Numbered from the stretch's first letter, positions 1 through 22,574 are shown. The stretch: 32,559 nt of DNA from Candidatus Helarchaeota archaeon (GCA_029838215.1 JALGVI010000048.1:1-32559), one strand, 5' to 3'. Notes: a model not told the origin generated them from the sequence alone. Made by a program: numbers and translations.

Positions 1-33
1 GATTAGGAATGAAAATTCAAGGAGTGTTTTAAC

Positions 34-792
34 GTGGGAAAGATATTAAGCGTTCACAGTTTTCGAGGAGGAACGGGTAAATCAAACATTACAGCAAATT
101 TAGCCGTTGCCTGCGCAATGTATGGAGATGCCCGTGTTGGAGTCATAGATACCGACATTCAATCCCCAGGAGTTCACGTGATCTTTGGACTTGGCGGAAA
201 AAAACTCCAGCATCCGCTCAATCAATACCTGCAAGGGCAGTGCAAGATCGAAGATGTTGCTGTCGATGTGACGAAATCCCTGAAACTAGAAAAAGGGCAA
301 CTCTTCATGTTCCCTGCGGCCTTGGAAGCCAGCGAGATCACCAAGATACTTCGAGAGGGCTATGAAGTGAGCATGCTCTCGGAGGGGTTTAACCAAATCA
401 TCGATAACATGAATTTAGATTACTTATTGATAGACACGCATCCAGGATTGAATGAAGAAACGTTCCTATCCATTGCAGTTTCGGATGGTTTATTCGTAGT
501 AATGCGTCCAGACTCACAAGATTACCTGGGAACATCCGTAACGCTTGAAATTGCCAAAAAACTGGATGTCCCGAACATATACATGATCATCAACAAGCTT
601 CTCCCAAAATATGATGTTGCATCCGTCAAGAAGGAAGTAGAGAAAACTTACAAGATTCCTGTTGCGGGCATTATTAAGTTCTATGAGGAACTTGCAGATA
701 CTGCCAGCAAGGAAGTTTTCATCACGATACATCCTGAACATGAATTGACAGGAATCTTTAAAGAAATTTACGAAATTGCCCGTCAAATATAA
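34..792 (+). CDS. MinD/ParA-family (SIMIBI) P-loop ATPase
   Basis: Deviant Walker A SFRGGTGKS, VIDTDIQSPG, switch II LIDTHPG, INKL motif; GTG start with GGAGTG at 21-26; no C-terminal membrane-targeting extension. Confidence 0.9.
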   Translation: MGKILSVHSFRGGTGKSNITANLAVACAMYGDARVGVIDTDIQSPGVHVIFGLGGKKLQHPLNQYLQGQCKIEDVAVDVTKSLKLEKGQLFMFPAALEASEITKILREGYEVSMLSEGFNQIIDNMNLDYLLIDTHPGLNEETFLSIAVSDGLFVVMRPDSQDYLGTSVTLEIAKKLDVPNIYMIINKLLPKYDVASVKKEVEKTYKIPVAGIIKFYEELADTASKEVFITIHPEHELTGIFKEIYEIARQI

Positions 793-806
793 CATTGGGG
801 AACACC

Positions 807-1493
807 ATGGTTGAGGGAGACAAAAACCTATCTTTATTGCGGAACATCTCCGATCTACAAGCAAGCTTCAGTGAAATGACGAAAGAATTCCAGGCATTAA
901 TGAATAACAGCGAGATTCAGCAGGCAGTTCTAAAGCAACTTGGAGACATGTTCCAAAAATTTACGAGAATGCGGGAAGCATTATCCAGCATAATGAATTA
1001 TTTTGATTCAATTTTGCAGAAAAAACCCCGAAAGAACTTATCTACTTTAAGTATCATTGATACGATAAACATACCTGATAATCTTCGCAAGAGCATGATG
1101 GCAGTCATCCGATTTGGAAAGGCAACTGCAGAGAAAGTCGCTTCAAGGACTAAGAGAGAACCAACCGTAGAAGAGGAATATCTATCAATGCTTGTCCAGA
1201 TGGGTCATCTTAATGTCGAATCGAAGGATGGCAAGCAAGTTTATTCATTTTCAATGGGAAAGAGGAAATCACGCATATCAGATGAAATATGGAAGTCCCT
1301 CATCAAGGACAGGACCGAGATGATCAATTTCGTATGTTCAACGGAGATTGAAAAATCCGAACTTAAAAAAATGGATTTAGACGAAATGAAAAAGATGGTT
1401 TCAGGAATTGATGAGGATCTCAACGCCATCAAATCATATTTAAATGAATATATAACATCATTATCTGAACTTCAAAAAAAATACAAATTTTAA
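807..1493 (+). CDS. Coiled-coil / winged-helix / coiled-coil protein
   Basis: Central segment IPDNLRKSMMAVIRFGKATAEKVASRTKREPTVEEEYLSMLVQMGHLNVESKDGKQVYSF has a helix-HTH-beta-wing pattern, with amphipathic helical flanks. ORF opens at TTG 795, 2 nt after the ATPase stop; ATG 807 preferred. Confidence 0.7.
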   Translation: MVEGDKNLSLLRNISDLQASFSEMTKEFQALMNNSEIQQAVLKQLGDMFQKFTRMREALSSIMNYFDSILQKKPRKNLSTLSIIDTINIPDNLRKSMMAVIRFGKATAEKVASRTKREPTVEEEYLSMLVQMGHLNVESKDGKQVYSFSMGKRKSRISDEIWKSLIKDRTEMINFVCSTEIEKSELKKMDLDEMKKMVSGIDEDLNAIKSYLNEYITSLSELQKKYKF

Positions 1494-1633
1494 ATCCGAT
1501 TCACGTCATCAGAAGCAGAAGTCTGCCCACTCAATCATGGTGAGGTTATCATCGTTGAATAGAAAGTGAAATTTTATTTATTAAGATGTAAGAATAAATG
1601 TTACCCGTCAGGATCGATTTTGGGTGAGATTAA

Positions 1634-4429
1634 ATGACAGATTTAACCGTGAAGTTTCAACAAAAATTTTTAAAAAAATTGAAGAAAGGGCTTGAAGGTT
1701 TTAACGCCGCCGAGAAATCATTCCAAAGAGAGAATGAAACAACAAAAGAGCGGATAAAAACAAATCTGACTAAAATTTTCAATAAAGAATTCACCAAAAA
1801 GAATAATTCGATCCTGCAAAAAGAACTTGCACCAGTTGAGAATTCGATTTTTACGTTATCCAACAAGTTCGATGAACAAATTGAAAAAACAAAACAAGAA
1901 GCTGAGAATTTAATCAATGATTTCATTGAAAAATTGCTGAATCTCTCCGCTAACATAAATGATGAAATAATGAATAAGACCAAATCAGTAAAAAGTAATT
2001 TTGATCAATTACATGAAGAAATTTCCAAGATTTTTGACACAAACATATCGTATTTTTTAAATCAAGTTAAACTGTCCGAGGAAAAACTCAATTCGGATAA
2101 TGAAATGGCATACAAAAACAATTTTGAAAAAATAAAAGAATATTTCGATTTATCCATTGGAAATATTAAACAAATTGAGGAGTCAGAATTAAATCTCATC
2201 TCAAAAACGAAAGATTACATAGACGATACTTTAAACGCAAACAAGCACCAATTAAAGGAAGAAGTAAACGAGCTCGTTGTTTTCTTTAAGGAAACCCTCA
2301 GTAAATATCTTGAGGATTTTAATGCCGCCCATGATCGCTTGATGGGATTACTTCAAGAAAAAGTTACTGATTTTAAAACACGCATCCATGAATTCCATGA
2401 AGAGATTTCAAAACAACACGAAGGATTTAAAAAAGGATTACAAGCTCAAAATATCACAAATCTTGAGCAACTTCAGGGAATCTTATTCGACATTATTATT
2501 AAAATATTGCGTAAGATGAACGAAAAGTTTGAGAGAAATGTTCAGGAGTTACTAGAAAGCATTAAACAACAGGTCGCAAGTACCATTAAGCTCTTCCAAA
2601 ATGAAATCATTCAATATGAAGAAGATTCATACAACATATTTCATGAAATGATTTCAAGCCAAGAAAATGCGTTCAAAAAGCTGAAAGGAAATGTTGATGA
2701 AGTAATTGACGAATTTCATGATGACATTTCTCAATTAATAAAAGAATTTAAAACGGATTTATTAAAAACACTTGAAATTAACGAAAAAGAACATTCAAAC
2801 AGTATTGAAAAAATTACAAGTGAGATTTTGACGGCAGTCGAGAATAAGAATCAAATTTTTGAACGAATTCAAAATCAGTTCCTTGAAGTATTAGAAGTAA
2901 TCAATGAGAAAGTCATTGAGTCAGATGATCGCCTATTCAACGTCGAAGACAAAGGAGTCTACAACATCATCAATGACTCCACGTTTCGAAAAGAAATTCG
3001 AAATGTCAGGGCCGTTACGGCATTATTAAATAAACAAATTGAAGAACTAAAGACGCAACTACCTGCATTTAACCAGAAGTGCAAGGTCGATTACCAAGAA
3101 AAAATCAAGGAAGTAATTCCAAAAATCCTGACCGAAACCCACGTTGCGTTTCAAAACGACCTGAAAATGATGGCAGCAAATTTCGAAAATGAACTTGCAA
3201 AACACCAAGAAGGATTGCAAGCACGCATTGCTAAGTTAAAACAATCCGAAACATTTTTTGGGTTAGTGAATCAACACTTGCAGGTTTTTAAAGAAAATAC
3301 AGAATCATTGTTTGAGAAAATGAGCCTTCTTTCGAATAAATTTAAAGAAACCGTGAATTCTGCTTCGAATGCTTTAAACGAGAAAATAGTAGGCATGACG
3401 AATGCGGTTCGAGAACAACATCAATTAATTCAAAATACTTTTCGTTCTAATTTCGAGGAGATTTTCACGCAAAACCTCCAAAACGTAACAGTCTACGTGG
3501 AGCATCTTTTTACAAATAATGAACTACTTCCTATTGAATTCTCTAACTCGCTTGAAGAATTTGATGAGTTATATTCAGGATTGGCAAAAAATATAAGCAA
3601 ATTTCAAAAGTCAATTACCGAAGAATTTAATAACATGACTCCCGACTTGATGGGAAAAATAAATGAAAGCATGGATGTCTTTTTCAAGGATGTTAATGAT
3701 GACTTGGTAAGTTTTTCATCGGAGAGTAAAAAAGAAACGGAAAAAAGGATTGAAGATTTAAAGACTGCAGTCATCGAAAGAGTTCGGACACACAATCAAT
3801 TATTTGAAGATAATGCTTCTAAAGCAGATCAAGATATAAAGCAAGTAATTGAAGAAACCGCAGCGGGATTACATGAGATCATAGAGAAAAACGAAACTTC
3901 GGCTACATTAATATATAATAGTGCCGCAGAAGAAGGTGCTCAATTTTTTAAACGAATAGATGAAACAATTGGGACGTTTAGGAAAAATTTTTCCGATTCA
4001 TTCACGAATCTCAAGCAACTCACGATAGACAAAGTCTCCGAAACTACAAATAAGCTGCTCGATGTATTATTAGAATTTCCCGTGATGGTTCGTTCGGAAT
4101 ATGATGAAGAGCTCGAGAACTTCAAAAAAGAAATGCAACAATTCACGAATCTTCATGTCGACGTTCTTGTCAATGAGAAAGTCACTTTTATTCAAAACGT
4201 AAAAGAACATTCTACGGCTCTATTTAATCAACTTCATGATTCAGTGAATAATGATAAATTGTTGAACATGTTTTTAGAAGAAATCAATCAAAGACTGGAT
4301 GCCTCGATCGAACAGTTTCTCACGAGCTACGTGAAAATAACAAAGAAAATTCACGATCTTTTTATAAGGCTTTCAGAAAATGACCAAGAATTCTTGGCTT
4401 TCATGAGCGAAACGATTGAAGAAAAATAA
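1634..4429 (+). CDS. Large all-helical coiled-coil protein with hendecad (11-aa) periodicity, function unknown
   Basis: 931-aa ORF, E/K/N/Q/F/I/L rich, very few Pro/Gly, no TM segments or enzyme motifs; hydrophobic residues recur every 11 positions. Confidence 0.85.
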   Translation: MTDLTVKFQQKFLKKLKKGLEGFNAAEKSFQRENETTKERIKTNLTKIFNKEFTKKNNSILQKELAPVENSIFTLSNKFDEQIEKTKQEAENLINDFIEKLLNLSANINDEIMNKTKSVKSNFDQLHEEISKIFDTNISYFLNQVKLSEEKLNSDNEMAYKNNFEKIKEYFDLSIGNIKQIEESELNLISKTKDYIDDTLNANKHQLKEEVNELVVFFKETLSKYLEDFNAAHDRLMGLLQEKVTDFKTRIHEFHEEISKQHEGFKKGLQAQNITNLEQLQGILFDIIIKILRKMNEKFERNVQELLESIKQQVASTIKLFQNEIIQYEEDSYNIFHEMISSQENAFKKLKGNVDEVIDEFHDDISQLIKEFKTDLLKTLEINEKEHSNSIEKITSEILTAVENKNQIFERIQNQFLEVLEVINEKVIESDDRLFNVEDKGVYNIINDSTFRKEIRNVRAVTALLNKQIEELKTQLPAFNQKCKVDYQEKIKEVIPKILTETHVAFQNDLKMMAANFENELAKHQEGLQARIAKLKQSETFFGLVNQHLQVFKENTESLFEKMSLLSNKFKETVNSASNALNEKIVGMTNAVREQHQLIQNTFRSNFEEIFTQNLQNVTVYVEHLFTNNELLPIEFSNSLEEFDELYSGLAKNISKFQKSITEEFNNMTPDLMGKINESMDVFFKDVNDDLVSFSSESKKETEKRIEDLKTAVIERVRTHNQLFEDNASKADQDIKQVIEETAAGLHEIIEKNETSATLIYNSAAEEGAQFFKRIDETIGTFRKNFSDSFTNLKQLTIDKVSETTNKLLDVLLEFPVMVRSEYDEELENFKKEMQQFTNLHVDVLVNEKVTFIQNVKEHSTALFNQLHDSVNNDKLLNMFLEEINQRLDASIEQFLTSYVKITKKIHDLFIRLSENDQEFLAFMSETIEEK

Positions 4430-4443
4430 AAAGAAAAAAGGAA
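4430..4443 (-). terminator. Candidate T-tract terminator for the minus-strand hydrolase gene
   Basis: AAAGAAAAAAGGAA between convergent stops reads as a T-rich tract on the minus strand. Confidence 0.4.
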
Positions 4444-5274
4444 TCAAGCGTGTTTATCCAGCCAATCACCCAAATCCTTGAGCACGATCTTCCGATCTTT
4501 CTCTAATTCATTGTAGACTTCGTGGAATAAACCATCGTAACGCTTTATTGTTTTGTCTTCCATGGTAAATTCTTTTTCCAATTCTTCGGAACCTGTTACT
4601 GCTTGATCTGCAGAGCCTTTTTGATAGAGAAGCGGTATCTTGAAATTTCCAACGATATGTTTTGCATTTTTAAATGCTTTTAAAAGTTCCATTCCCGCCT
4701 TAAAAGTCGTGTCGCTGAAAATGAGCGGATCCTCTTCATATGCCTTGACAACTTCAGGATCTCTACTAATAAACTCGGTTCCCAACCCCGCATCAATTCG
4801 TCCACGAGGTGAAATGATTGCTAGAAGTTTGCCGATAGCTCTAACAAAAGCACCCTTTCCACCACCAACAGCAGTCCCACAACCAGAAAGAATGAGTCCT
4901 TTTATTAAATCTTCATGCTTGGCAACAAAATAAATTGCAATGGCAGAACCCATGGAATGACCCAGCATGAAAATCGGTAGGTTGGGATGCTTTTTTCGGA
5001 TTAATTCATTAAAAATTTTTTCATCCTCAACATATTGATCAAACGAATCGACGTGACTTCTTATGCCTTCAGACTTGCCATGACCTCTATGGTCATTTGC
5101 ATAAACGGCGTATCCACGGGGTACCAATTCATTAACTACATTCATGTATCGCCCAGAATGTTCTGCCCACCCATGAACAACTTGCACTACTGCCTTTGGA
5201 TTATCAGGTAACCATGCTTGATAGTAAATCTTAAACCCATTAACGCCCTTGAATTCTCCTTCATCGTGTTTCAT
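4444..5274 (-). CDS. Alpha/beta hydrolase, monoacylglycerol lipase / lysophospholipase (PldB-like) family
   Basis: HGWAEHSGRY, DHRGHGKSEG, nucleophile GHSMG, GSAD (Asp), GLFHEVYNE (His). ORF opens at GTG 5286; ATG 5274 follows AGGTG. Confidence 0.9.
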   Translation of the reverse strand: MKHDEGEFKGVNGFKIYYQAWLPDNPKAVVQVVHGWAEHSGRYMNVVNELVPRGYAVYANDHRGHGKSEGIRSHVDSFDQYVEDEKIFNELIRKKHPNLPIFMLGHSMGSAIAIYFVAKHEDLIKGLILSGCGTAVGGGKGAFVRAIGKLLAIISPRGRIDAGLGTEFISRDPEVVKAYEEDPLIFSDTTFKAGMELLKAFKNAKHIVGNFKIPLLYQKGSADQAVTGSEELEKEFTMEDKTIKRYDGLFHEVYNELEKDRKIVLKDLGDWLDKHA

Positions 5275-5385
5275 TTCATTCAACACCTAAAACATGTTCA
5301 GTTTATTTTCTAAAATTCAAATGATATAAAAATTATAATTATCCAGTCTCTTATTTATGTTCATTCTTGCTTCCTTGACGTTTTC

Positions 5386-6600
5386 TTAAGGAATGAAATA
5401 AAAACCGAACGTATAAGCGGGGAAAAAGAGACCGAAAATGATAAGACCGACAATGCCACACAAAACAGGGTTGACTACATTATCCGAAACTTTTAGTGGA
5501 GGGCTAAAGTAGTCGATGATAAAGAAAACTCCAGCACCAGCTAAAGACATTAAAATCCCTGCTATAATGATGGTTAGGTTAATCGTTCCAAAATAGTAGG
5601 TGGCCATTATGAAATATGAAATTAGACCAAACACGAAGGAACCGATAATACCTCCCAAGCACCCTTCCCACGTTTTCCGAGTTTCGGGATGATTTGGATG
5701 AACCCGTCGCTTTCCAAGAGTTATGCCGACGATCGTAGCCATTGCGTCACCTAGTGCAGAAATGGAGATAGCGACCATTGCAACAACAGGAGGAAATAGT
5801 AGAACCGCAACCAACATGCCCGTAATGAGGTAAACATGCGGACCAAAAACGTTTCTTTCTTTGGTACGAATCATGTTCCCGACTTCTTTTATGGGATAAT
5901 ACCTGAACTTATAGATTCTGACCAAATCAGTAAGAATGCAAATATAGAAAATGATTGAAAGAACAAACGAACTGATGGATTTTCCAACGATAGGTAGTAA
6001 TTCAGGATGATTTACAAGGCTGACATCAGATCCAAAGAATAATTTCATAAATGGATCAATATTCACCACGTAATCATAAATAGCTTCGAATACCAACGCA
6101 CCAACAAATAAATAACAAACAATAAATCCGTTTACGAGTGAATGGAATAACTTGCGCGAAATTTCGAGATCTAATGGATTATTTTTGAAAGCCTGTTGCT
6201 GAAGGGCTTTCAATTGTGCTTCTTCAGTTTCGTAATCCTTTTTAATATAATGTTCAAAAAATGCGTAAATCATGATGTAAACGATAATCACGGAATTCAA
6301 AAATATGATGATCCCCGACATTGGACTCGGATAAGGATTGAAACGAAAGTTCAGATATACAAACGCATTCGAATTAATTGGAGCCACGATCTGACCTACA
6401 ATGACAACAAAGAACCCACTAATGGTCACATACACGCCAAGAACAATGCATAAAATGGCGGTGATGAAAGTTGAATATTTGGCTTCACTATTTTTCACAC
6501 TTTTTCGCACGACGAATAAAAGCAGAACAGCAATTACGAGAAATTGAATGCCGTTTGCAATATTAACAGCTCCATAAAAAGGCATGTCAGCAATCTCCAT
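5386..6600 (-). CDS. CTP-dependent lipid/isoprenol kinase (Sec59/Dgk1/VTE5 family) with N-terminal membrane extension
   Basis: EISRKLFH, GDAMATIVG..LGKR, KTWEGCLGG and DN motifs; multiple TM segments; about 140-aa extra N-terminal region with about 3 TMs. Confidence 0.8.
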   Translation of the reverse strand: MEIADMPFYGAVNIANGIQFLVIAVLLLFVVRKSVKNSEAKYSTFITAILCIVLGVYVTISGFFVVIVGQIVAPINSNAFVYLNFRFNPYPSPMSGIIIFLNSVIIVYIMIYAFFEHYIKKDYETEEAQLKALQQQAFKNNPLDLEISRKLFHSLVNGFIVCYLFVGALVFEAIYDYVVNIDPFMKLFFGSDVSLVNHPELLPIVGKSISSFVLSIIFYICILTDLVRIYKFRYYPIKEVGNMIRTKERNVFGPHVYLITGMLVAVLLFPPVVAMVAISISALGDAMATIVGITLGKRRVHPNHPETRKTWEGCLGGIIGSFVFGLISYFIMATYYFGTINLTIIIAGILMSLAGAGVFFIIDYFSPPLKVSDNVVNPVLCGIVGLIIFGLFFPAYTFGFYFIP

Positions 6601-6741
6601 TTAATTCTTGCAGCTAATTGTTCTTTTGTTTAAAAGCGGAATTTTGTTTAAAAAACATTATTTTATGAACATAAACTATTGATTTAAAAAACCTAAATCC
6701 GAAAGGAAGCATGTAAACAAATTCAAGGAGAGATCAAAAAA

Positions 6742-6954
6742 ATGCCTATAAATTGGTATCTGTGGGACCAGTTCATATTTTTCTATAACATCCTCATGAC
6801 GGTTTTAGCCATAGTGGCTATTATTCATTTCTTTATGTTGTTGAATGATAGAAAAGTTAAACTAAACATAATTATTTGCTTGACCTGTGCCATACTAATA
6901 ATCAGCACGTCTATAGTGTACATGGTGACACCGATAATCTTACAATTCATATAG
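6742..6954 (+). CDS. Small two-TM membrane protein, unknown function
   Basis: 70 aa with two hydrophobic stretches; GGAG upstream of ATG; lies in an otherwise empty gap. Confidence 0.55.
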   Translation: MPINWYLWDQFIFFYNILMTVLAIVAIIHFFMLLNDRKVKLNIIICLTCAILIISTSIVYMVTPIILQFI

Positions 6955-7120
6955 ATACTCCAAAAAACACGCTTTTTTTCTTCAAGTGCCGAAAAAATCA
7001 TTTCAAATATCATGTTAATAGTGGAAACTCCCCGTTTAAGTCAAGCAATATCAGAATATTTTAAAACCTTATATGCTCTAAATAACCTATAAATATAGAA
7101 GTAAAATCATTTCAATTCAA

Positions 7121-7771
7121 GTGAGGATCGTGGAGTCCATGTCGAAGGATGAACAGAACTTGGTAAAGCAAGCGATTGAATTTGTTGCGGAAGGCAATAC
7201 TCAGGAAGCCATCGCCTGCTTGATCGAAGCTTTGAATAATGACGACTGGTCTATTCGATCCTATGCTGCCCAGATCTTAGGAGAAATTGGGAAAGTCTCA
7301 CTGGATGAAAAATTATTCAGGAAAATCATTGATAGAATGTTAGAAGCCATCAAAATCGAGAAAGATGGTTGGGTTCGTGAAGCATTCACTAAATCATTTG
7401 GAAAATTGGGGCAAAATCATCCGGAAGTAATTCAAGAACTCCTACCTCCATTGCTTTCAGTTCTAATGGAAGATGATCACGATGGCGCTCGGGGAAGTGC
7501 GGTAAAAGCAATCGGGGACTTGGGAAGAATTCGCCCTGAACATGTTGAAAAATCACTGCCTGACTTGGCTGAAAAATTGGAGAGCGATGAATCTTGGCTC
7601 GTGCGATACTATTCAGCATATGCATTGGGAGAAATTGGAAAAACCATCCCCGAAAAAATAGAAACTTATCTTGAAACTCTAACGCGAGTAAACGAAAATG
7701 ACGTGGATAATGGAGTCCAAGATGCAGCGCGTGATGCTCTCGAAAAGATAAAAACGGCTTTAAATCAATAA
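7121..7771 (+). CDS. HEAT/PBS-lyase repeat protein
   Basis: About five repeats of type D..W.VR..A..ALGEIG (DDWSIRSYAAQILGEIG; DESWLVRYYSAYALGEIG). Start may be ATG 7139. Confidence 0.85.
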   Translation: MRIVESMSKDEQNLVKQAIEFVAEGNTQEAIACLIEALNNDDWSIRSYAAQILGEIGKVSLDEKLFRKIIDRMLEAIKIEKDGWVREAFTKSFGKLGQNHPEVIQELLPPLLSVLMEDDHDGARGSAVKAIGDLGRIRPEHVEKSLPDLAEKLESDESWLVRYYSAYALGEIGKTIPEKIETYLETLTRVNENDVDNGVQDAARDALEKIKTALNQ

Positions 7772-7785
7772 AAAAAGAAAAAAAA

Positions 7786-9507
7786 TTAGTCGGCAGATTT
7801 CTCTTCTTCTGTTTTTGTTTTTTGATTCCCGTACTTATAGAAGGGTGACTTTTGATTGATCTTTCTTATGGTTTCAACGAGGTTCTTCAAGATTGGAAAT
7901 CCACCAAAGAAGTCAAGGTCTTCATCGGCGAATCCTGCAAGACCGAGCATGCATAAAATGAAAATCCCGACAGGAATGATTGCACCACCTAGAAAAATGA
8001 GAATGGCATAAGTCGTATGAATTATTCCAGAAAGGATGATTCCAGCATTAGTGAACGTTTCTGCGAAATTGAGGTTGAGCATGATTAAATAATTGAACGG
8101 AACGAACAAAGAAACCAAATAATAGATTAGAATTCCAACAAACACGCTCACGGCTCCCTTCCATAAGACGTCAGTAAATTGACGGCTTGAAACCGAAACA
8201 CGTTTCAAGATATATCGGAAGCTAAATGGAAATAAAATCACGCAAATGATTAATAGACAAACGGGGCCAACATAAAGTGCAAATATGGGTGGAACTAGGG
8301 CTAAACCTAATGGCACGGCTATTATCTGGAACACTGTTAAAATTAAGATCAGAATAAATCCAATTTTGGCTTCACCACGGCCAATTGATAGACTACAAGC
8401 GAGAAATATCAAACCAATAAAAACGACCGCAACAGATTGAATGATGAACGGTAAGAATCCGGGAACATATTCAGGACCATGAATGACGAGTAATAAAGTC
8501 ATTGCTTGGCTGACATAAAGCGCAAGAAACAGCACGGATAGATTGTAACCCATCCGAAATGATGTTTTTACCAGCGAATCGATTTCTTGTTGGTCCTGAC
8601 GTGCGTGTGCCTCGGATATGGCAGGGACCTGTGGCCAACCAAACACGCAAGCAGATGCCATGACTCCAGCATAACCAGTGAAAATACTATAGATGCTTAC
8701 TATTGGACTTGTTGGAGTGAAAATTAGAGTATAATAGATCGATGATATCGCATATATGGTTCCAATGAGAATCAACATTGGAAAAGCAGAATACATGCCG
8801 TATTTTAAAATTGACTTTATCTCTGTTCGATCGACTTTTCCGATTAAAGCATTCATCTTGTAAGGTGCTGCCTTTTTCAAGAGAAAAACACCTGCCACGA
8901 TTTGAAAAATTGCCCCGATAAAAGCCAATCCCATGGCGATGATGATCCAATTTAGCGGCACGGGCATTATCAATCCAATTAATCCAAGTACGGAGCCGCT
9001 TGTTGCTAAAAAAGAAATAATGGAAACGTAATCGAATCGTTGAAGACCAGTAAGATTTCCAATAAACCAATCTCGGATGAAGGCAATGAAGACGGCAATT
9101 GAGACGATTAAAAACACGACACCTAAGAAGAAATTATAGGCAATGGTTATGATACCCATGATGATTAACAAGATAGAAAAAGTCAACCCCAATAGACTCA
9201 TCACGATGAAACCAGCTCGAGCGTGTTTGATAGCACTCGTTTCAGATTCAACCAAACCTTCTGAGATATATTTCGAGAGAGCTTGATGCATGCCCCCTGA
9301 AATCCAAGTAAATGCAAGACTTAATGAAAGACCGGCTGCAACCAAGCCATATCCTTCAGGACCGATCCCGACATCAGATCTTGAAAAAATGGCAGCAAAT
9401 ATCCATCCAACAACACCAGCACCCAGACTGAATACTAAAAGATATCCACCTCCGCCGATGATCTTTTGGGCGGCGATTTCATCCTTTTCAGAGCTTGTAC
9501 CACTCAT
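7786..9507 (-). CDS. MOP-superfamily flippase / oligosaccharide or lipid exporter (Wzx/MurJ/MATE-like)
   Basis: About 14 TM segments; IGPEGYG loop after TM1, ALSKYISE, PAISEAHA patterns typical of flippases. ORF opens at 9528; ATG 9507 preferred. Confidence 0.8.
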   Translation of the reverse strand: MSGTSSEKDEIAAQKIIGGGGYLLVFSLGAGVVGWIFAAIFSRSDVGIGPEGYGLVAAGLSLSLAFTWISGGMHQALSKYISEGLVESETSAIKHARAGFIVMSLLGLTFSILLIIMGIITIAYNFFLGVVFLIVSIAVFIAFIRDWFIGNLTGLQRFDYVSIISFLATSGSVLGLIGLIMPVPLNWIIIAMGLAFIGAIFQIVAGVFLLKKAAPYKMNALIGKVDRTEIKSILKYGMYSAFPMLILIGTIYAISSIYYTLIFTPTSPIVSIYSIFTGYAGVMASACVFGWPQVPAISEAHARQDQQEIDSLVKTSFRMGYNLSVLFLALYVSQAMTLLLVIHGPEYVPGFLPFIIQSVAVVFIGLIFLACSLSIGRGEAKIGFILILILTVFQIIAVPLGLALVPPIFALYVGPVCLLIICVILFPFSFRYILKRVSVSSRQFTDVLWKGAVSVFVGILIYYLVSLFVPFNYLIMLNLNFAETFTNAGIILSGIIHTTYAILIFLGGAIIPVGIFILCMLGLAGFADEDLDFFGGFPILKNLVETIRKINQKSPFYKYGNQKTKTEEEKSAD

Positions 9508-9627
9508 TTTTCTTGCACGAATCCTCAAATTTTTAGGGAAATTTCAGATGAGAAAGATTAATTCTAACGATTTCCTTCATAAAATAAATATGTTATTAAA
9601 AAAAATTAGAGATAGTCAATTGAAACA

Positions 9628-10454: not shown

Positions 10455-10510
10455 ATACTCAAGAATCAAATCCTATATTAGGATTTGAAATAAATAACGA
10501 GTGGATTTAC

Positions 10511-11140
10511 ATGAAAATAAAATGGGTTTCTCACGCATGTTTTCAAATCACGGCAGATTCTGGCAAGGTTCTTTATACTGATCCTTACAATATTCCCGAT
10601 GGCATGGAGCCCGCAGATATAATATTGTGTTCTCATGATCACTATGATCATGCCGATGCAAAGGCGATTAAAAAAATAATCACGAAGGATACAACCGTAA
10701 TCTGCCCGAAATCCTGTGAAAACAAGCTTAAAAAATTCTCTCCGAAGACACTTGGAATCAATGACACCATCGAACTTGCGGGAATGAAAATCACGGCAGT
10801 TCCTGCCTATAACGTCGGAAAGGCATTTCATCCAAAGGCAAATAATTGGCTGGGATACATAATTGAAGTCGACAACAAAAGAATCTATCATGCAGGTGAT
10901 ACGGACCTCATAGATGAAATGAAAACCTTTGAAAATATTGACGTGGCACTCCTCCCAGTAGGTGACACTTACACGATGGGATTTGAGGCGGCAGCTGAAG
11001 CATGTGCCGTTATCAAGCCAAAAATTTGCGTGCCAATGCATGATTGGGACAAGGACCTCGAGCCATTTGTAAAAATGGCAAATGATAAGGCTCCTGACGT
11101 AAAAGTCGAAATTCTAAAAAACAAAGACCTTTCCATATAA
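10511..11140 (+). CDS. Metallo-beta-lactamase-fold hydrolase (UPF0173/UlaG-like)
   Basis: HACF, TDPY, SHDHYDH (HxHxDH), YHAGDT, PMH motifs. Confidence 0.9.
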   Translation: MKIKWVSHACFQITADSGKVLYTDPYNIPDGMEPADIILCSHDHYDHADAKAIKKIITKDTTVICPKSCENKLKKFSPKTLGINDTIELAGMKITAVPAYNVGKAFHPKANNWLGYIIEVDNKRIYHAGDTDLIDEMKTFENIDVALLPVGDTYTMGFEAAAEACAVIKPKICVPMHDWDKDLEPFVKMANDKAPDVKVEILKNKDLSI

Positions 11141-12395: not shown

Positions 12396-12492
12396 TAAAG
12401 CAAAAATTGAACTTTATTTTTATATGAAATCATTTCTTAAATAATTAAATAAAATGCATCTTTGAAAATTGCAGAACGGAAGGAAACATGAA

Positions 12493-13227
12493 ATGGCACA
12501 CGAATACGATTTATCTAAAGGAAACGCTCCTCTGAGAGATGAAATTGCCAGCACGGAGATCTTCTTTTTAAACAAGAAGATAGGAAAACCCGAGGCAAAA
12601 GTGATCATTGAAAGTAAATTGAACAAGGTTTTTAAAGGAGCATCAGGAGTAGACGTTCAATATCTTGAAGTTAAGGATAATTATAATCCATACATTCACA
12701 TTCGAGGAAACTACAAGATCCGGTACTTGAAAAAACAGGTATTAAGCATTAATGTATCCCATGAAATCGTAGGGGCGAAAGTCTGCCAAGAATGCGATGT
12801 GGTGATGGAATTAGGCGAAGCTCGCCCAGGTGAGGAGAAGAAAAAACGAAAACTTGATATTCTCGTGGTGTTAAAAGCGCATCATGAACACGGAGACGTG
12901 GATTTAGCATTTGATCCAAATGGCAAGAAAATGAACCCTGATAAGTTAATGGGTTGGAAAAAAGAACCAGGTCCATCGGATTTTCTTGAAACAAATGGGG
13001 ATGAGGTTCGTAGATTTGCAGTCACGATTGAGCAAGCCATTGACATGCTTCGTAAACAGATCACTCGCCGCCCAACAGACGCGGTTCGTATTATTGAAGA
13101 AATCTTTGAAGTCTCAAAAGTAGAAGTCATTCTTAGTCCCGTCTATATTTATACGTTGAAATATCAAGATGATACGAGAAAAATCCAAATTGATGCAATA
13201 AACCAGTCATTTAAAATCATTTCTTAG
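12493..13227 (+). CDS. Soluble hypothetical protein
   Basis: Long ORF with protein-like composition, divergent from the eIF2B-like gene. ORF opens at TTG 12469; ATG 12493 preferred. No family recognised. Confidence 0.7.
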   Translation: MAHEYDLSKGNAPLRDEIASTEIFFLNKKIGKPEAKVIIESKLNKVFKGASGVDVQYLEVKDNYNPYIHIRGNYKIRYLKKQVLSINVSHEIVGAKVCQECDVVMELGEARPGEEKKKRKLDILVVLKAHHEHGDVDLAFDPNGKKMNPDKLMGWKKEPGPSDFLETNGDEVRRFAVTIEQAIDMLRKQITRRPTDAVRIIEEIFEVSKVEVILSPVYIYTLKYQDDTRKIQIDAINQSFKIIS

Positions 13228-18154: not shown

Positions 18155-19341
18155 TAGAGCACCTCTTTGATCTTTGCCAATATTTCCTCAGGTGAATGAA
18201 GTTCGCCCCCGATCTTGCCAAAACGAATTACTTCAGCATTTCCCCTCGAATACTCAGATACCTTGTGAAAAATTTGTCCCATGTTCATCTCAGGGACGAT
18301 AAAATATTTGGTCTTCTGGCTCAGATTGAAGATGAGTTCATCTGCAAAGGGCCAAATTGTTATCAATCGAAGATTTCCGACGCTAATATCCTGCGCACGT
18401 GCCATCTCAACGGCTTCAATTGCAGGACGCGATGTTATGCCGTGGCTCACGATGATGATTTTTGGATCATCGTCAAGGTATTGAGCTTCATACCTGACGA
18501 TGTCATCTCTATTGTCTGAAATTTTTTCGTAAAAACGCCTTACAAGTTCTTCATGGACTTTAGGGTCTTGTGTTGCTGGATACGATTTCCAATCATGAGT
18601 TAGCCCCGTGAGATAAGTATGGTATTCATCACCTAATTTGTCCATTTCCGGTACCTTGCTTTCAGGATGGGTGAAACCGGTCCGAAATGGAAGGTATTGA
18701 GATACGTCAATGGTGACAGGAGAGCGCTTCTTGATAACCACGTCATTTGGGTCAGGAATTATTAAGGATTCACGTAAATGAGCTGTAATGGCATCAGACA
18801 AGATGATGACAGGAGTTCGATATTTATCCGCAAGATTGAAAGCTTGGATGGTGATATCTAAACAATCTTGAACACCATTCGGAGCAAGTGCTATGATACT
18901 ATGATCACCGTGCGTGCCCCACCGTGCCTGCATTATATCCCCTTGGCTTGCCTTTGTTGGTTGACCCGTTGATGGTCCGGACCGTTGAACATCCACGATC
19001 ACGATGGGTGTTTCAGTCATGCAAGCATACCCAATATTCTCTTGCATGAGCGAAAAGCCGGGACCGGATGTTGCAGTCATCGTTCGGATTCCATTCCACG
19101 AGGCACCTATAATGGCAGCAATTGCAGCAATTTCATCTTCCATTTGAAGAAACATTCCATCAAGTAACGGCAAGAACTTAGCCATTTTTTCAAGAATTTC
19201 GGTGGCGGGCGTTATGGGGTATCCCGCGAAAAATCGGCATCCGGCTAAAAGAGCTCCATATACCATGGCATCATTACCCGTAACGAATTGCTTCTTTGGT
19301 TGAAGAATGTCTTCCAATTTAATTGCTTTATCCTTCAGCAC
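18154..19341 (-). CDS. korA: 2-oxoacid:ferredoxin oxidoreductase alpha subunit
   Basis: GNDA, FAGYPITPATE, QMEDEIAA, TATSGPGFSLMQE, QRSGPSTG. GTG 19341 follows GGAGG (ORF opens at 19377); TAATG overlap with beta. Exact 2-oxoacid substrate not determinable. Confidence 0.93.
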   Translation of the reverse strand: MLKDKAIKLEDILQPKKQFVTGNDAMVYGALLAGCRFFAGYPITPATEILEKMAKFLPLLDGMFLQMEDEIAAIAAIIGASWNGIRTMTATSGPGFSLMQENIGYACMTETPIVIVDVQRSGPSTGQPTKASQGDIMQARWGTHGDHSIIALAPNGVQDCLDITIQAFNLADKYRTPVIILSDAITAHLRESLIIPDPNDVVIKKRSPVTIDVSQYLPFRTGFTHPESKVPEMDKLGDEYHTYLTGLTHDWKSYPATQDPKVHEELVRRFYEKISDNRDDIVRYEAQYLDDDPKIIIVSHGITSRPAIEAVEMARAQDISVGNLRLITIWPFADELIFNLSQKTKYFIVPEMNMGQIFHKVSEYSRGNAEVIRFGKIGGELHSPEEILAKIKEVL

Positions 19342-19573
19342 TTGTTGCCTCCTTTTCATTTTCAAATTCCTCGACACTAATGGCGAAATCAGGGCAGATT
19401 AGCTCGCATCTCTTGCAATTGATACAGGCTTCGGGATCTTTGACTTCTACAACATCGTATCCCTTCTTATTAAATCGACCTGAAAAATCTAACACGTTTT
19501 TCGGGCAGACCTCAATGCACAAGCCGCAACCTTTACAACATTCTTCATTTATCACGGGAACCAAGAATTTCAC
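19328..19573 (-). CDS. korD: 2x[4Fe-4S] ferredoxin / delta subunit
   Basis: CKGCGLCIEVCP and CINCKRCELICP. Confidence 0.9.
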   Translation of the reverse strand: MKFLVPVINEECCKGCGLCIEVCPKNVLDFSGRFNKKGYDVVEVKDPEACINCKRCELICPDFAISVEEFENEKEATSAEG

Positions 19574-19670
19574 CGCAAGGAAAACGCTTAATCTAAATAA
19601 TGAAATGGGCGCAGTTCAGATATCTAAATATCCAAAGAAAAATTATAGCACGTCCAATAATACTTCATTG

Positions 19671-21767
19671 ATGGATTCGTTAAATATATTTGGAAGCCTG
19701 AGTTTTAAGAATTTAGTAAAAAATCCCGAATTTCGTCAATTTTTGAGGGCTTTAGGAGGAGTGAATATCCATTCAGATGTGGAAAACATCGTTCCGTCAT
19801 ATTGGACATCAACTCGTTGGAGAATTGAAAAAATCAAAGGTAAGGATTACGTCTTATCCCCTGCATTTTACAGAGATGAAGATTTAAGCATTCGGTTTGC
19901 CATTCGCGTGGACAAGGACAAATTCCAACTAAACGTTCATGTAAAGAAAAAAAACGAAGAGAAAATACTTGATTCAATTGCATGTTATAAAATCGTAACA
20001 GAATACATGGAAGATGAAAAGAAAAGCACGTACAGAGTCGAGTTGACACCGTTCGAAGAATTATTCGTGACCATTTCGAATCTAGATGCTTATTTTCAGG
20101 AAAAATTACCGATATATGAAACTTGGGACTTGAATATTGTCAATCAGGCATTTGATATCGTGATCGAACGGGGATATGCCACGCAAGAGATTCGGAAGAA
20201 GAAATGCAAGGAGATCACTGAAAACATAATTCTCTTATCGGAAGATGAAGATCTCTACAAGGCGCAAATTTACATTCAAATCAAGTCCTTGCTGGATTTT
20301 TGGGATTTTGACTGGTTTAACGATCTCAATGAGCATGTTGATTTGTTGGGTTTTCTTCACGAAATCGCGGCAAAAGAGAGTTCCGAAGAAATTGAACACA
20401 AGATTGCATTCATAGCCGAGAGGCGAACGGATGAGCGACTCTTGGATAAATTCATTACAGAAATGACAACCATGAATTTAAATGCTAAGAATCGAGTTTA
20501 TTGGTTTGTTTCCTGCATAAAGCGCCAATCAATTCGCCGCAGGCTTGAAAGCATCTTGTTAAGACGTTTAGAACGAGAGAATGAAACGAATTCCAAGAAC
20601 ATCATCGAACTATTACTAAAAATAGGTCATGTTGAAAATAAATTACTGCTTTTCGAGAAATTTTCACGGTTGGATTTAACAACGAAAATATTCATTTTAG
20701 AGAATCTTGAATCAAACTTAGATCTCCGTCACGTGCCATTTCTAATGCAACTTTTAGAAGATAGAAACTGGCAAGTTCGGCAGAAAACCATCGAAATTTT
20801 GGCTCTAATAGGAGATATTAAAGTTGTCGAGCCCATCATCATTCATCTCGATGATTCGCATTTTTTGGTTCGTTCTCAAGCGGCTTCTCTACTCGGTCAA
20901 TTTAAAAGCAAGATTGCATTGAAGCCTCTCATCTTACGATTAAGAAAAGAAGAAAACATTAACGTGCAGATGAGCATATTGGATTCCATTGAGGAAATAA
21001 AGGAAAAATCGGCTTCATTTCCATTAATCGAGACTTTCAGGAACAAGCAATTTGAAGACAAAGTCCAAACCAGAATCATAGAAGTCCTTGCAAGGATTGG
21101 TGGAAGCAAGGTAGAAGAATTCTTGAAGGAATTGATGACTCCGAAAACCACGAAACACTTACTATTAGCGGCTCTGGAAGCGGCTAAATTGTTAAATGAG
21201 CAAGAAATAATTAAAAGCGTTTATCAAAATTTAACACATCCCGAACCAAGTGTTCGAATGAAAGCACTTGAAACGATTCGATTTTTTCCAACGCCATCAG
21301 AACCAGAAATAATCTTTGCTCGTCTTAAGGACGAGAGAAGCGTTCAATTGGAAGCAATTAGGACGATTGGGCACTTACAGATTAAGAACGGTTATATTCA
21401 TCTCGCACAATTGCTAAAATCAACAGATGATGAGATTGTTCGAGAAACGATCCTTTCGCTCGGTCGAATTAAAGATGAAAGGGGAATATCTTCCTTATTG
21501 AACATCTCGGACATCCGTTTTAGAAATCACGTGGCACTAGCTCTTCCAAAACTGATCAAGCACCCAACGATTTCTGCACTCATGAAACGTCTAATTAATC
21601 CAGATTGGAAAGTCCGGTTATCAGTCGTTCGGACAATTGGTGAGTTTAAAAACCCGGAATCAATTCCTGCCTTGATTTTTTCAATTCAAGATAAAAACGA
21701 AAACGTCCGCTCTGAAGCAAGGAAATTCTTATCAGAATATGAAAAGTTAAAAATAGAAATGAATTGA
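19671..21767 (+). CDS. Large HEAT/PBS-repeat protein with uncharacterised N-terminal region
   Basis: Repeats such as LLEDRNWQVRQKTIEILALIG, LDDSHFLVRSQAASLLGQF, LINPDWKVRLSVVRTIGEF. ORF from 19323 overlaps korD; ATG 19671 preferred. Confidence 0.82.
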   Translation: MDSLNIFGSLSFKNLVKNPEFRQFLRALGGVNIHSDVENIVPSYWTSTRWRIEKIKGKDYVLSPAFYRDEDLSIRFAIRVDKDKFQLNVHVKKKNEEKILDSIACYKIVTEYMEDEKKSTYRVELTPFEELFVTISNLDAYFQEKLPIYETWDLNIVNQAFDIVIERGYATQEIRKKKCKEITENIILLSEDEDLYKAQIYIQIKSLLDFWDFDWFNDLNEHVDLLGFLHEIAAKESSEEIEHKIAFIAERRTDERLLDKFITEMTTMNLNAKNRVYWFVSCIKRQSIRRRLESILLRRLERENETNSKNIIELLLKIGHVENKLLLFEKFSRLDLTTKIFILENLESNLDLRHVPFLMQLLEDRNWQVRQKTIEILALIGDIKVVEPIIIHLDDSHFLVRSQAASLLGQFKSKIALKPLILRLRKEENINVQMSILDSIEEIKEKSASFPLIETFRNKQFEDKVQTRIIEVLARIGGSKVEEFLKELMTPKTTKHLLLAALEAAKLLNEQEIIKSVYQNLTHPEPSVRMKALETIRFFPTPSEPEIIFARLKDERSVQLEAIRTIGHLQIKNGYIHLAQLLKSTDDEIVRETILSLGRIKDERGISSLLNISDIRFRNHVALALPKLIKHPTISALMKRLINPDWKVRLSVVRTIGEFKNPESIPALIFSIQDKNENVRSEARKFLSEYEKLKIEMN

Positions 21768-22574
21768 TTACCACGGAACTGACTTTTTACCGAGCTTGTA
21801 AGCAACAAAGTTAGCAAATAAGGCTATTAAGGGAGTAAATATGAGAATCAGAACGTAATAGTACCACGGTAAGAAATACCACGGCATTAGAAAGAGGGGC
21901 AACGTGAATAAAATCGAAATACATATGAAATCAATCTGATCTAGGACAGGAAATTGTGCACCTCTTGGAACTTTAAATCGCCTTTTAATAAAGGAGCCGA
22001 CGAGATCCCCCACGGGAGTTCCAATTGATAGCAATATGATTCGAGGAACGTGTACCCATATTATAGTTAAGGGATAAACAGCCAGAACCCGGGTGAATTC
22101 GTCGAACGTGATGAGTTTCATGGCAACATAATAGAGAGGACCACCGAATAGAGAAATTCGCGTTTCAAAATATGCGACACTTTGAGCAAGGAAATGCAAG
22201 AACAATAAAAAGGGCGAAATTGCAATCCCTATTATGACACCACCGATGAATCCCTCGACGGTCTTGCCATCTCCGAAGATTCTCTCACCATCAAAAAAGT
22301 TCTTGCCAAAATCAATGGGATGTGATGTTCTCCTGAGCGTTCCGGCAATAGTCATTCCTGCATTAGCAATAAAGGCCGGTGCAAAAGTAAGAATGGATAA
22401 CATTAACATTATAAGCCAATCTAGCGGTTTACCATTCAGTATCACAAAAATTACAAAAAGAATATTAATTACACCTAAAATCACGATGAAAATTTCGACA
22501 TTCCGAATGTCTTTCTTTCGAAGTGTATCTTTCTCAGCACGTATTGCCGTGAGGGATAAATCTTCGGAAGTCAT
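21768..22574 (-). CDS. carS: CDP-archaeol synthase (CDP-2,3-bis-O-geranylgeranyl-sn-glycerol synthase)
   Basis: PAFIANA, PIDFGKNFFDGERIFGDGKTVEG, GDLVGSFIKRR..PRG..FPVLDQIDF, C-terminal AYKLGKKSVPW. Confidence 0.92.
   Translation of the reverse strand: MTSEDLSLTAIRAEKDTLRKKDIRNVEIFIVILGVINILFVIFVILNGKPLDWLIMLMLSILTFAPAFIANAGMTIAGTLRRTSHPIDFGKNFFDGERIFGDGKTVEGFIGGVIIGIAISPFLLFLHFLAQSVAYFETRISLFGGPLYYVAMKLITFDEFTRVLAVYPLTIIWVHVPRIILLSIGTPVGDLVGSFIKRRFKVPRGAQFPVLDQIDFICISILFTLPLFLMPWYFLPWYYYVLILIFTPLIALFANFVAYKLGKKSVPW

Follow-up and report, generated by a model that had tools for sequence, protein, structure and literature searches.

A conserved Helarchaeales gene pair resembling ParA-wHTH systems, with a giant hendecad protein as its neighbour

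Do three co-oriented genes at the beginning of a Candidatus Helarchaeota archaeon contig (GCA_029838215.1, JALGVI010000048.1:1-32559) encode one machine, or a conserved pair with a neighbour? Bacteria rely on ParA/MinD ATPases to organise their DNA and protein cargo, and a first-pass annotation of this stretch (the window, 32,559 nucleotides (nt) in full) had combined a MinD/ParA-type ATPase, a coiled-coil winged helix-turn-helix (wHTH) protein (open reading frame 2, ORF2), and a 931-residue hendecad protein (ORF3) into an undescribed positioning or cytoskeletal module, with the ATPase as motor, ORF2 as adaptor, and ORF3 as filament or membrane scaffold. We consider it fairly probable that the first two genes form a two-gene cassette of the ParA-wHTH type, serving a cellular role rather than mobile defence, and that the third gene is not part of its core.

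In each of the seven Helarchaeales loci recovered (G002, G003, G004, G005, L053, L054, and the P0008 contig), the genes for the ATPase and ORF2 share one co-oriented cluster. By sequence comparison they are a genuine conserved gene pair, which bears out their earlier treatment as a unit. The two proteins diverge at different rates, the identity of ORF2 being 31–66% where that of the ATPase is 57–85% in the same genomes, so that ORF2 evolves much faster; an ORF2 homologue labelled Candidatus Helarchaeales is 65% identical. A gene for an ACD-alpha-like CoA ligase stands between the two genes in G003 and G005, and after ORF2 in G004. Ligases of this kind (CoA_binding_2 plus Succ_CoA_lig, ~488 residues) were seen inside or beside the pair cluster of L011, L012, L013, and the P0008 contig, and the window genome carries ~20 paralogues elsewhere, none of them at the ATPase–ORF2 locus. 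A fusion of the two proteins in L053 was considered and rejected, because the 492-residue public call (968–2446) crosses two in-frame TGA stops, and reading with genetic code 11 gives two separate genes; the call is probably a gene-calling artefact.

The association extends beyond this order. Helix-wHTH genes of the ORF2 family have a ParA-like ATPase gene within 1.5 kb at 21 of 30 Asgard loci, several of the nine others being short contigs. ATPases like that of a second, paralogous pair in the window genome go with most of these helix-wHTH genes in Asgard genomes, where this second kind of pair is widespread. In the window genome it is found on contig C149 (L016), where genes for a 155-residue helix-plus-wHTH protein (2130–2597, plus strand) and a ParA-like ATPase (2600–3370, minus strand; Walker A S-Y-K-GGTGKT, and DLDFRAPS) are convergent and almost touching, an arrangement kept in metagenome contigs.

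The ATPase is a member of the MinD/ParA superfamily (Pfam matches to ParA, CbiA, and AAA_31), as first annotated. Its best NCBIfam model is minD_arch (TIGR01969), at 84.1 bits under a cut-off of 201.75, and it scores 58.8 bits against the KGGVGR-variant model (cut-off, 90), 52.3 bits against minD_bact (TIGR01968; cut-off, 212.9), and 43.2 bits against ParA_partition (NF041546; cut-off, 180). The Walker A motif reads S-F-R-G-G-T-G-K-S, with an arginine (Arg11) at the position of the signature lysine, sensor-1 is D-T-D-I-Q-S-P-G, Walker B is I-D-T-H-P-G, and N187–K188 are present. Among 14 orthologues, the motifs H-S-F-R-G-G-T-G-K-S, D-T-D-x-x-S-P-G, I-D-T-H-P-G, and N-K are invariant, Arg11 included; P45 is also invariant and G46 nearly so. 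The residue two after DxD is Q in the window ATPase and A or Q in the orthologues, so that there is no conserved glutamine. No curated family thus claims the protein, which, as far as motifs and scores can tell, is neither a true MinD nor a true ParA, and which its sequence places on the MinD side of the ParA clade.

Archaeal and bacterial MinD, together with FleN, are the nearest solved structures in a PDB sequence search, at modest scores, and no SegA chain appeared among the matches at E ≤ 1e-5. The ATPase is like MinD (Archaeoglobus MinD-1, PDB 1hyq, and bacterial MinD) in its size and in its best matches among solved structures and NCBIfam models. It differs from MinD in the arginine for the signature lysine, in scores far under the cut-offs, in the absence of MinC and MinE from the window, and in the absence of a C-terminal membrane-targeting extension, the protein ending with the fold at residue 252. 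From ParA/Soj–ParB (PriB1) it differs by Ser instead of Asn at the first Walker A position, by the lack of a conserved Gln after DxD, and by its low ParA_partition score. Almost all Arg-type orthologues have a single cysteine, C70, in the motif L-x-G-x-C-x-I, which the Lys-type paralogue lacks. The role of an Mrp/NBP35-type Fe–S carrier was rejected, as the ATPase has no CxxC motif, only this one conserved cysteine, and scores far under the cut-offs.

Outside Helarchaeales, single-copy ATPase orthologues of ~50% identity occur in 62 of the 76 genomes of the Asgard family f10, in 17 of 19 of f15, and in the one genome of f29, and in none of the 68 genomes of f4. The ATPase tree follows the taxonomic families (support, 100/99 for f10 and 97/98 for f15), which argues for vertical descent. 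In f10, f15, and f29, the orthologue is always overlapped upstream by a gene for a 420–435-residue protein with weak matches to longin in its N-terminal part and to an NPRL3-type HTH in its C-terminal part (L020–L047). After the ATPase gene, f10 has a 149-residue protein without a Pfam match and an aldehyde-oxidoreductase-like gene, and f15 a convergent gene for a protein of ~460 residues. The Thor-type longin-wHTH (NPRL2/NPRL3-like) systems thus resemble the Helarchaeales pair in having an orthologous ATPase (~50% identity, same motifs) tightly coupled to a wHTH-bearing partner, whereas ORF2, encoded downstream and not upstream of the ATPase, lacks a longin domain and is half as long. The profile–profile alignment of the ORF2 family with the longin-wHTH proteins covers the wHTH regions only, is not significant (hhalign E, 0.0061; probability, 6%), and gives no evidence for a common origin, and the TPR-like protein encoded upstream in Helarchaeales has no similarity to the longin-wHTH proteins by profile–profile comparison.

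The AlphaFold2 (AF2) model of ORF2 (49-row alignment; predicted local distance difference test (pLDDT), 85.6) consists of two long helices (residues 4–32 and 39–71), a winged helix-turn-helix (~83–148), and a C-terminal helical hairpin (159–226), and the family has a conserved motif L-P-[DE]-x-L-R-K. With this model, Foldseek returned only generic wHTH DNA binders at ~1e-3, namely Sso10a-2, PadR, MarR, and the centromere binder AspA of pNOB8; a PDB sequence search with ORF2 gave nothing at E ≤ 1, and the Pfam scan showed no ParB match. A word-indexed search with ORF2 alone gave only two proteins, and a profile search was needed for wider reach. With the ORF2-family profile, 636 proteins were found at E ≤ 1e-3, nearly all of them helix-plus-wHTH proteins of 100–160 residues with weak TrmB or SoFic-C-type wHTH matches; only a handful of Helarchaeales-type sequences have the full-length form, C-terminal hairpin included. 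Complex prediction, which the first-pass annotation had proposed for all pairs, was run for the ATPase and ORF2 (two ATPase chains, two ATP, and ORF2) and gave a weak pass, with a score of 0.43 against 0.00 for the best control. In calibration, 58 of 80 solved complexes passed, as did 2 of 110 mismatched pairs; passes with a score of 0.60 or lower came from only seven of the 80 solved complexes and from both of the mismatches that passed. The runs agreed in at least 88% of contacts, with a partner pLDDT of at least 65.

A pair of this anatomy is no longer undescribed, as the first-pass annotation had held it to be, because ParA-wHTH systems have been defined computationally by Li, Burroughs and Aravind (bioRxiv 10.64898/2026.10.19.760177; 22 Oct 2026). 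According to that preprint, these mostly archaeal systems belong to the ConB2 assemblage of the MinD-side (PriB2) ParA clade; their ATPase has Ser at the first Walker A position, Arg for a Walker A Lys, and PG after sensor-1, and its partner is a rapidly evolving wHTH protein with an elongated N-terminal helix and sometimes a profilin/longin-like domain. The window ATPase likewise has Ser first in Walker A, no conserved Gln after DxD, and PG after sensor-1 (DTDIQSPG), and it is linked to a fast-evolving wHTH protein with elongated N-terminal helices, ORF2; the longin-bearing form corresponds to the partner of the Thor-type ATPase orthologues. Four differences were noted. The arginine stands at the first (signature) lysine in the window ATPase, whereas the preprint legend has it replace the ‘second lysine’ of Walker A, a comparison made with the text of the preprint; the Helarchaeales partner has the extra C-terminal hairpin of ~70 residues; the branch studied here looks vertically inherited and near-universal in two families, a poor fit to the immune role proposed; and the described system has no giant hendecad neighbour. 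On sequence criteria, the Helarchaeales pair matches ParA-wHTH in every describable feature, the position of the arginine set aside, and would be a newly seen form of this computationally predicted kind.

The preprint puts forward the hypothesis that ParA-wHTH systems coat invader DNA (bioRxiv 10.64898/2026.10.19.760177). Applied to the window, the pair would be an immune system against selfish elements, in which the wHTH protein recognises invader DNA and the ParA protein multimerises to coat or sequester it, with ORF3 as a fast-evolving, lineage-specific accessory. The anatomy matches that description, the wHTH partner diverges faster than the ATPase between the same genome pairs, and ORF3 is the fastest-evolving of the three; moreover, MoxR-vWA, of which the neighbours of the ORF3 paralogue described below are an instance, is named there as an immunity/apoptosis system. 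The pair was also not found in two of the seven Helarchaeales representatives (G001, 94% complete, and G006, 88%), so that it would be optional within the order. Against this, the ATPase is single-copy in most genomes of f10 and f15, with a tree that follows taxonomy and a stable, family-specific synteny, whereas mobile defence genes are usually patchy. Neither defence, integrase, or transposase genes nor an effector gene were seen in the 32-kb window, and in PADLOC neither the ATPase (19.8 bits) nor ORF2 had a credible match. Centromere-binding adaptors, too, typically evolve fast. We regard the immune reading as improbable. Single-copy, vertical, and near-universal inheritance in two Asgard families, together with housekeeping neighbours, favours a cellular role over mobile defence, and for the pair we lean by inference towards housekeeping.

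In the cassette that we prefer, the ATPase would dimerise on ATP. The signature lysine normally reaches across the ATPase dimer, and Arg11 would replace it there. In ORF2, the long N-terminal helices would mediate dimerisation and the winged helix would contact DNA, and the protein would also engage the ATPase or stimulate it. An ATP-dependent dimer switch with a dimeric DNA-binding adaptor would follow the logic of ParA/ParB, SegA/SegB, and ParA/AspA with unrelated adaptor folds, and the cassette may act in the organisation of DNA or cargo, or as a switch; the binding of the two proteins, the DNA binding, the ATPase stimulation, and the cellular role are what we infer. The pair has in common with ParA/ParB, SegA/SegB, and pNOB8 ParA/ParB/AspA a deviant-Walker-A ATPase beside a small, fast-evolving adaptor of predicted DNA-binding type, with AspA, a wHTH centromere binder, among the neighbours of the modelled fold. 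It differs from these partition systems in that a ParB or RHH partner is lacking, in that the DNA examined has no centromere-like repeats (tandem repeats and repeat arrays at window 1–7200 did not go beyond chance-level short matches), and in its chromosomal locus with housekeeping neighbours. Of the motor-and-adaptor reading first proposed, a switch with a DNA-binding adaptor is thus reasonable and the pair is conserved, while the hendecad third part and the novelty of the module were not upheld.

ORF3 is probably a lineage-specific neighbour of the pair that does not belong to the core of the system and is an accessory at most. Its hendecad character, as annotated at first pass, is unmistakable in the periodicity: hydrophobic power at exactly 11/3 is 9.9–11.1 against a shuffle maximum of 1.2–1.3 (99th percentile, ~2.1), power at the heptad period of 3.5 is at background, and the hydrophobic a-d-e-h pattern keeps one phase across residues ~45–420 and ~530–850. 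The best-conserved islands are residues 1–30, 46–75, 421–465 (out of hendecad phase), and 781–810. The protein is predicted to be almost wholly α-helical, and no transmembrane segment was found (highest 19-residue hydropathy, 1.18). Its AF2 model, built from three sequences, is all-helical but of low confidence (pLDDT, 57.7). Assignment to ZorA of the Zorya defence system, which combines a MotA/ExbB-type membrane domain with a long tail, was rejected, because ORF3 has no transmembrane segment and its PADLOC matches (E down to 4.7e-13) are confined to the tail part of the ZorA models.

The distribution of ORF3 is much narrower than that of the pair. No homologue was found in six genomes of the same order, four of which keep the pair, nor on the P0008 contig, nor in ~40 relatives, and a search of a 5.8-billion-protein set at near and shorter lengths gave one orthologue (P0155, 47% identity) and no fragments. 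The family thus comprises three known sequences, ORF3, P0155, and a paralogue on contig C51. P0155 is encoded on L053 directly behind the ATPase (79% identity) and ORF2 (59%), where the next gene is not the hydrolase that follows in the window, and this comparison identifies ORF3 as the fastest-evolving of the three genes. In the closest relative, L054, the contig ends after ORF2 and one further gene, a DUF3368 gene in opposite orientation. The first-pass annotation had made its module depend on co-location of the three genes in relatives, which we found in the closest lineage only.

The gap before ORF3 points in the same direction. An AT-rich, TATA-like element (1572–1584) lies ~56 nt before the ORF3 ATG, followed by a Shine–Dalgarno (SD)-like GGGTGA (1621–1626), and only a T4 run follows ORF2 within the 140 nt; in L053, the gap is 145 nt, with a TATA-like element at a similar distance (~55–60 nt before the ATG) and an SD-like motif. 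A separate promoter for ORF3 is plausible from these elements; the first-pass annotation had named such a promoter, with unrelated expression, as evidence against its module. The 931-residue protein is therefore not retained as a dedicated scaffold of the pair, as it has no homologue in the other Helarchaeales representatives, the trio recurs in a single other contig, and the gap holds a TATA-like element. We suggest that ORF3, which probably has its own promoter, was added beside the pair in one narrow lineage of Helarchaeales only.

The paralogue on C51 of the window genome (18517–21330, 938 residues, also hendecad) is set in a co-oriented cluster at C51:16711–22321 (L048, 4712–10322), which encodes a MoxR-type AAA+ protein (AAA_5, CbbQ_C), a 301-residue protein with a weak VWA match, the hendecad paralogue, beginning 11 nt behind this MoxR AAA+/VWA pair, and a 271-residue protein with a weak longin match. 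Genes for a ScpB-like protein and an Arf-like GTPase were seen near the cluster. No homologue of the paralogue was found in 40 related genomes.

These observations bear on the possibility that the products of the three genes work as a single positioning or cytoskeletal machine, with the ATPase as motor, ORF2 as adaptor, and ORF3 as a filament or scaffold that recruits the ATPase or is remodelled by it, in the manner of ParA with Scy. Scy of Streptomyces recruits ParA. Like Scy/FilP and the 11-mer proteins (apolipoproteins, perilipins, and LEA), ORF3 is long, almost purely helical, and of 11/3 periodicity, and it adjoins a ParA-type ATPase; compared by sequence only, it has no homology to Scy/FilP, no Pfam or NCBIfam family model claims it, and its family is known from three sequences. 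The trio of L053, kept with a different gene after ORF3, the position of both hendecad paralogues behind NTPase-plus-adaptor pairs, and a phase-coherent hendecad with conserved islands as possible docking sites speak for such a machine. Against it stand the lack of ORF3 homologues in G002–G005 and on the P0008 contig, where the pair itself is retained, the DUF3368 gene in opposite orientation after ORF2 in L054, and the 140–145-nt gap with a TATA-like element in both genomes; the evidence for linkage comes from two genomes within a single narrow lineage. On balance we hold a three-gene machine to be unlikely. Somewhat less likely still, in our estimate, is the proposal that the ORF3 family is a new Asgard scaffold or filament acted on by NTPase switches, with residues 1–75, 421–465, and 781–810 as docking sites and the trio as a lineage-specific three-part positioning machine.

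Alternatively, ORF3 could be unrelated to the ATPase, a stress protein or an amphipathic 11-mer protein binding lipid or membrane surfaces (like apolipoprotein, perilipin, or LEA) that merely adjoins the pair. Both ORF3 and its C51 paralogue match Pfam Apolipoprotein (PF01442) at 49 and 40 bits, respectively, under the gathering threshold of 90, although such sub-threshold matches are probably due to the periodicity. The 11-residue amphipathic periodicity has a broad hydrophobic stripe, but the a-d-e-h pattern suits coiled coils or bundles equally, and the AF2 model, being of low confidence, does not favour this assignment. The convergent neighbours, a Hydrolase_4 α/β hydrolase and a CTP_transf_1/CarS-like enzyme of lipid synthesis, would suit a lipid-binding role, as would the probable promoter of its own, but these lipid-gene neighbours are not kept in L053. 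We give this the least credence of the explanations considered.

Several points weigh against the cassette reading with ORF3 outside its core. ORF3 stays behind the pair in L053 despite its divergence to 47% and a different downstream flank, and its only paralogue also follows an NTPase-plus-adaptor pair (MoxR and VWA). The pair is optional in Helarchaeales, its complex prediction is a weak pass and lends it weak support, and its mutual binding, DNA binding, and ATPase stimulation come from prediction. The authors of the preprint read ParA-wHTH systems as immunity, not as housekeeping. Furthermore, the contig end cuts off the upstream half of the cluster, and the actual operon may include further parts.

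The ORF scan of the window verified the three plus-strand genes (Table 1), and the first-pass description of their spacing proved correct throughout. From the ATPase stop codon (790–792), the TTG start of ORF2 is 2 nt on and the in-frame ATG 14 nt on; the latter is preceded by GGGGA and is the start used in the database copy P0004 (228 residues). The window starts at a contig end, 33 nt before the ATPase gene, and an SD-like GGAG 9 nt upstream of that gene's GTG would fit an internal gene of an operon.

Table 1. Positions of the three genes and the intergenic gap in the window
Feature	Position	Strand	Start and length	Source
ATPase gene	34-792	+	GTG start, 252 aa	ORF scan
ORF2	807-1493 or 795-1493	+	from ATG, 228 aa, or from TTG, 232 aa	ORF scan
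Intergenic gap	1494-1633	+	140 nt	read directly
ORF3	1634-4429	+	ATG start, 931 aa	ORF scan

Relatives carry conserved genes upstream of the ATPase, for a TPR-like protein of 400–530 residues and a small or medium protein. Neither the small upstream protein nor the 272-residue Zn-ribbon protein of L053 has a homologue in the window genome, and a TPR-like match on C159 of the same genome was rejected as the missing upstream gene, since it does not lie at a contig end and no ATPase adjoins it. No MinC or MinE domain was found among the window ORFs scanned, the upstream side being cut off by the contig end. The earlier statement that the window holds no known partner is thus sound for the downstream 32 kb, whereas on the upstream side, because the ATPase gene lies so close to the contig end, such an absence is uninformative.

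The downstream 32 kb carry housekeeping genes. Convergent with ORF3 are the genes for the Hydrolase_4 α/β hydrolase (4444–5286, minus strand) and a 404-residue CTP_transf_1 protein (5386–6600, minus strand). Lipid-related genes recur in the window, among them those for a CarS-like CDP-archaeol synthase (21768–22574, minus strand) and a 661-residue hydrolase (22906–24891); the P0008 contig likewise has two CarS-like genes, at ~5 kb from the pair. HEAT-repeat proteins are encoded at 7121–7771 and 19323–21767, and three ORFs have no Pfam match at E ≤ 0.001 (7786–9528, minus strand, 580 residues; 10478–11041, minus strand, 187 residues; and 12469–13227, plus strand, 252 residues).

The Asgard archaea are the closest prokaryotic relatives of eukaryotes, and the locus bears on them in three respects. 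ORF3 and its MoxR-linked paralogue are its most original element, and the hendecad protein, at present only a neighbour of the pair, qualifies as a well-defined scaffold candidate specific to one archaeal lineage. Vertical inheritance and near-universality in two families bear on whether the proposed immune role holds for this branch of ParA proteins. Finally, an Asgard-wide ATPase with arginine in place of lysine has a winged-helix partner even when that partner lacks the eukaryote-like longin domain, which suggests that the wHTH, and not the longin domain, is the constant half of the system.

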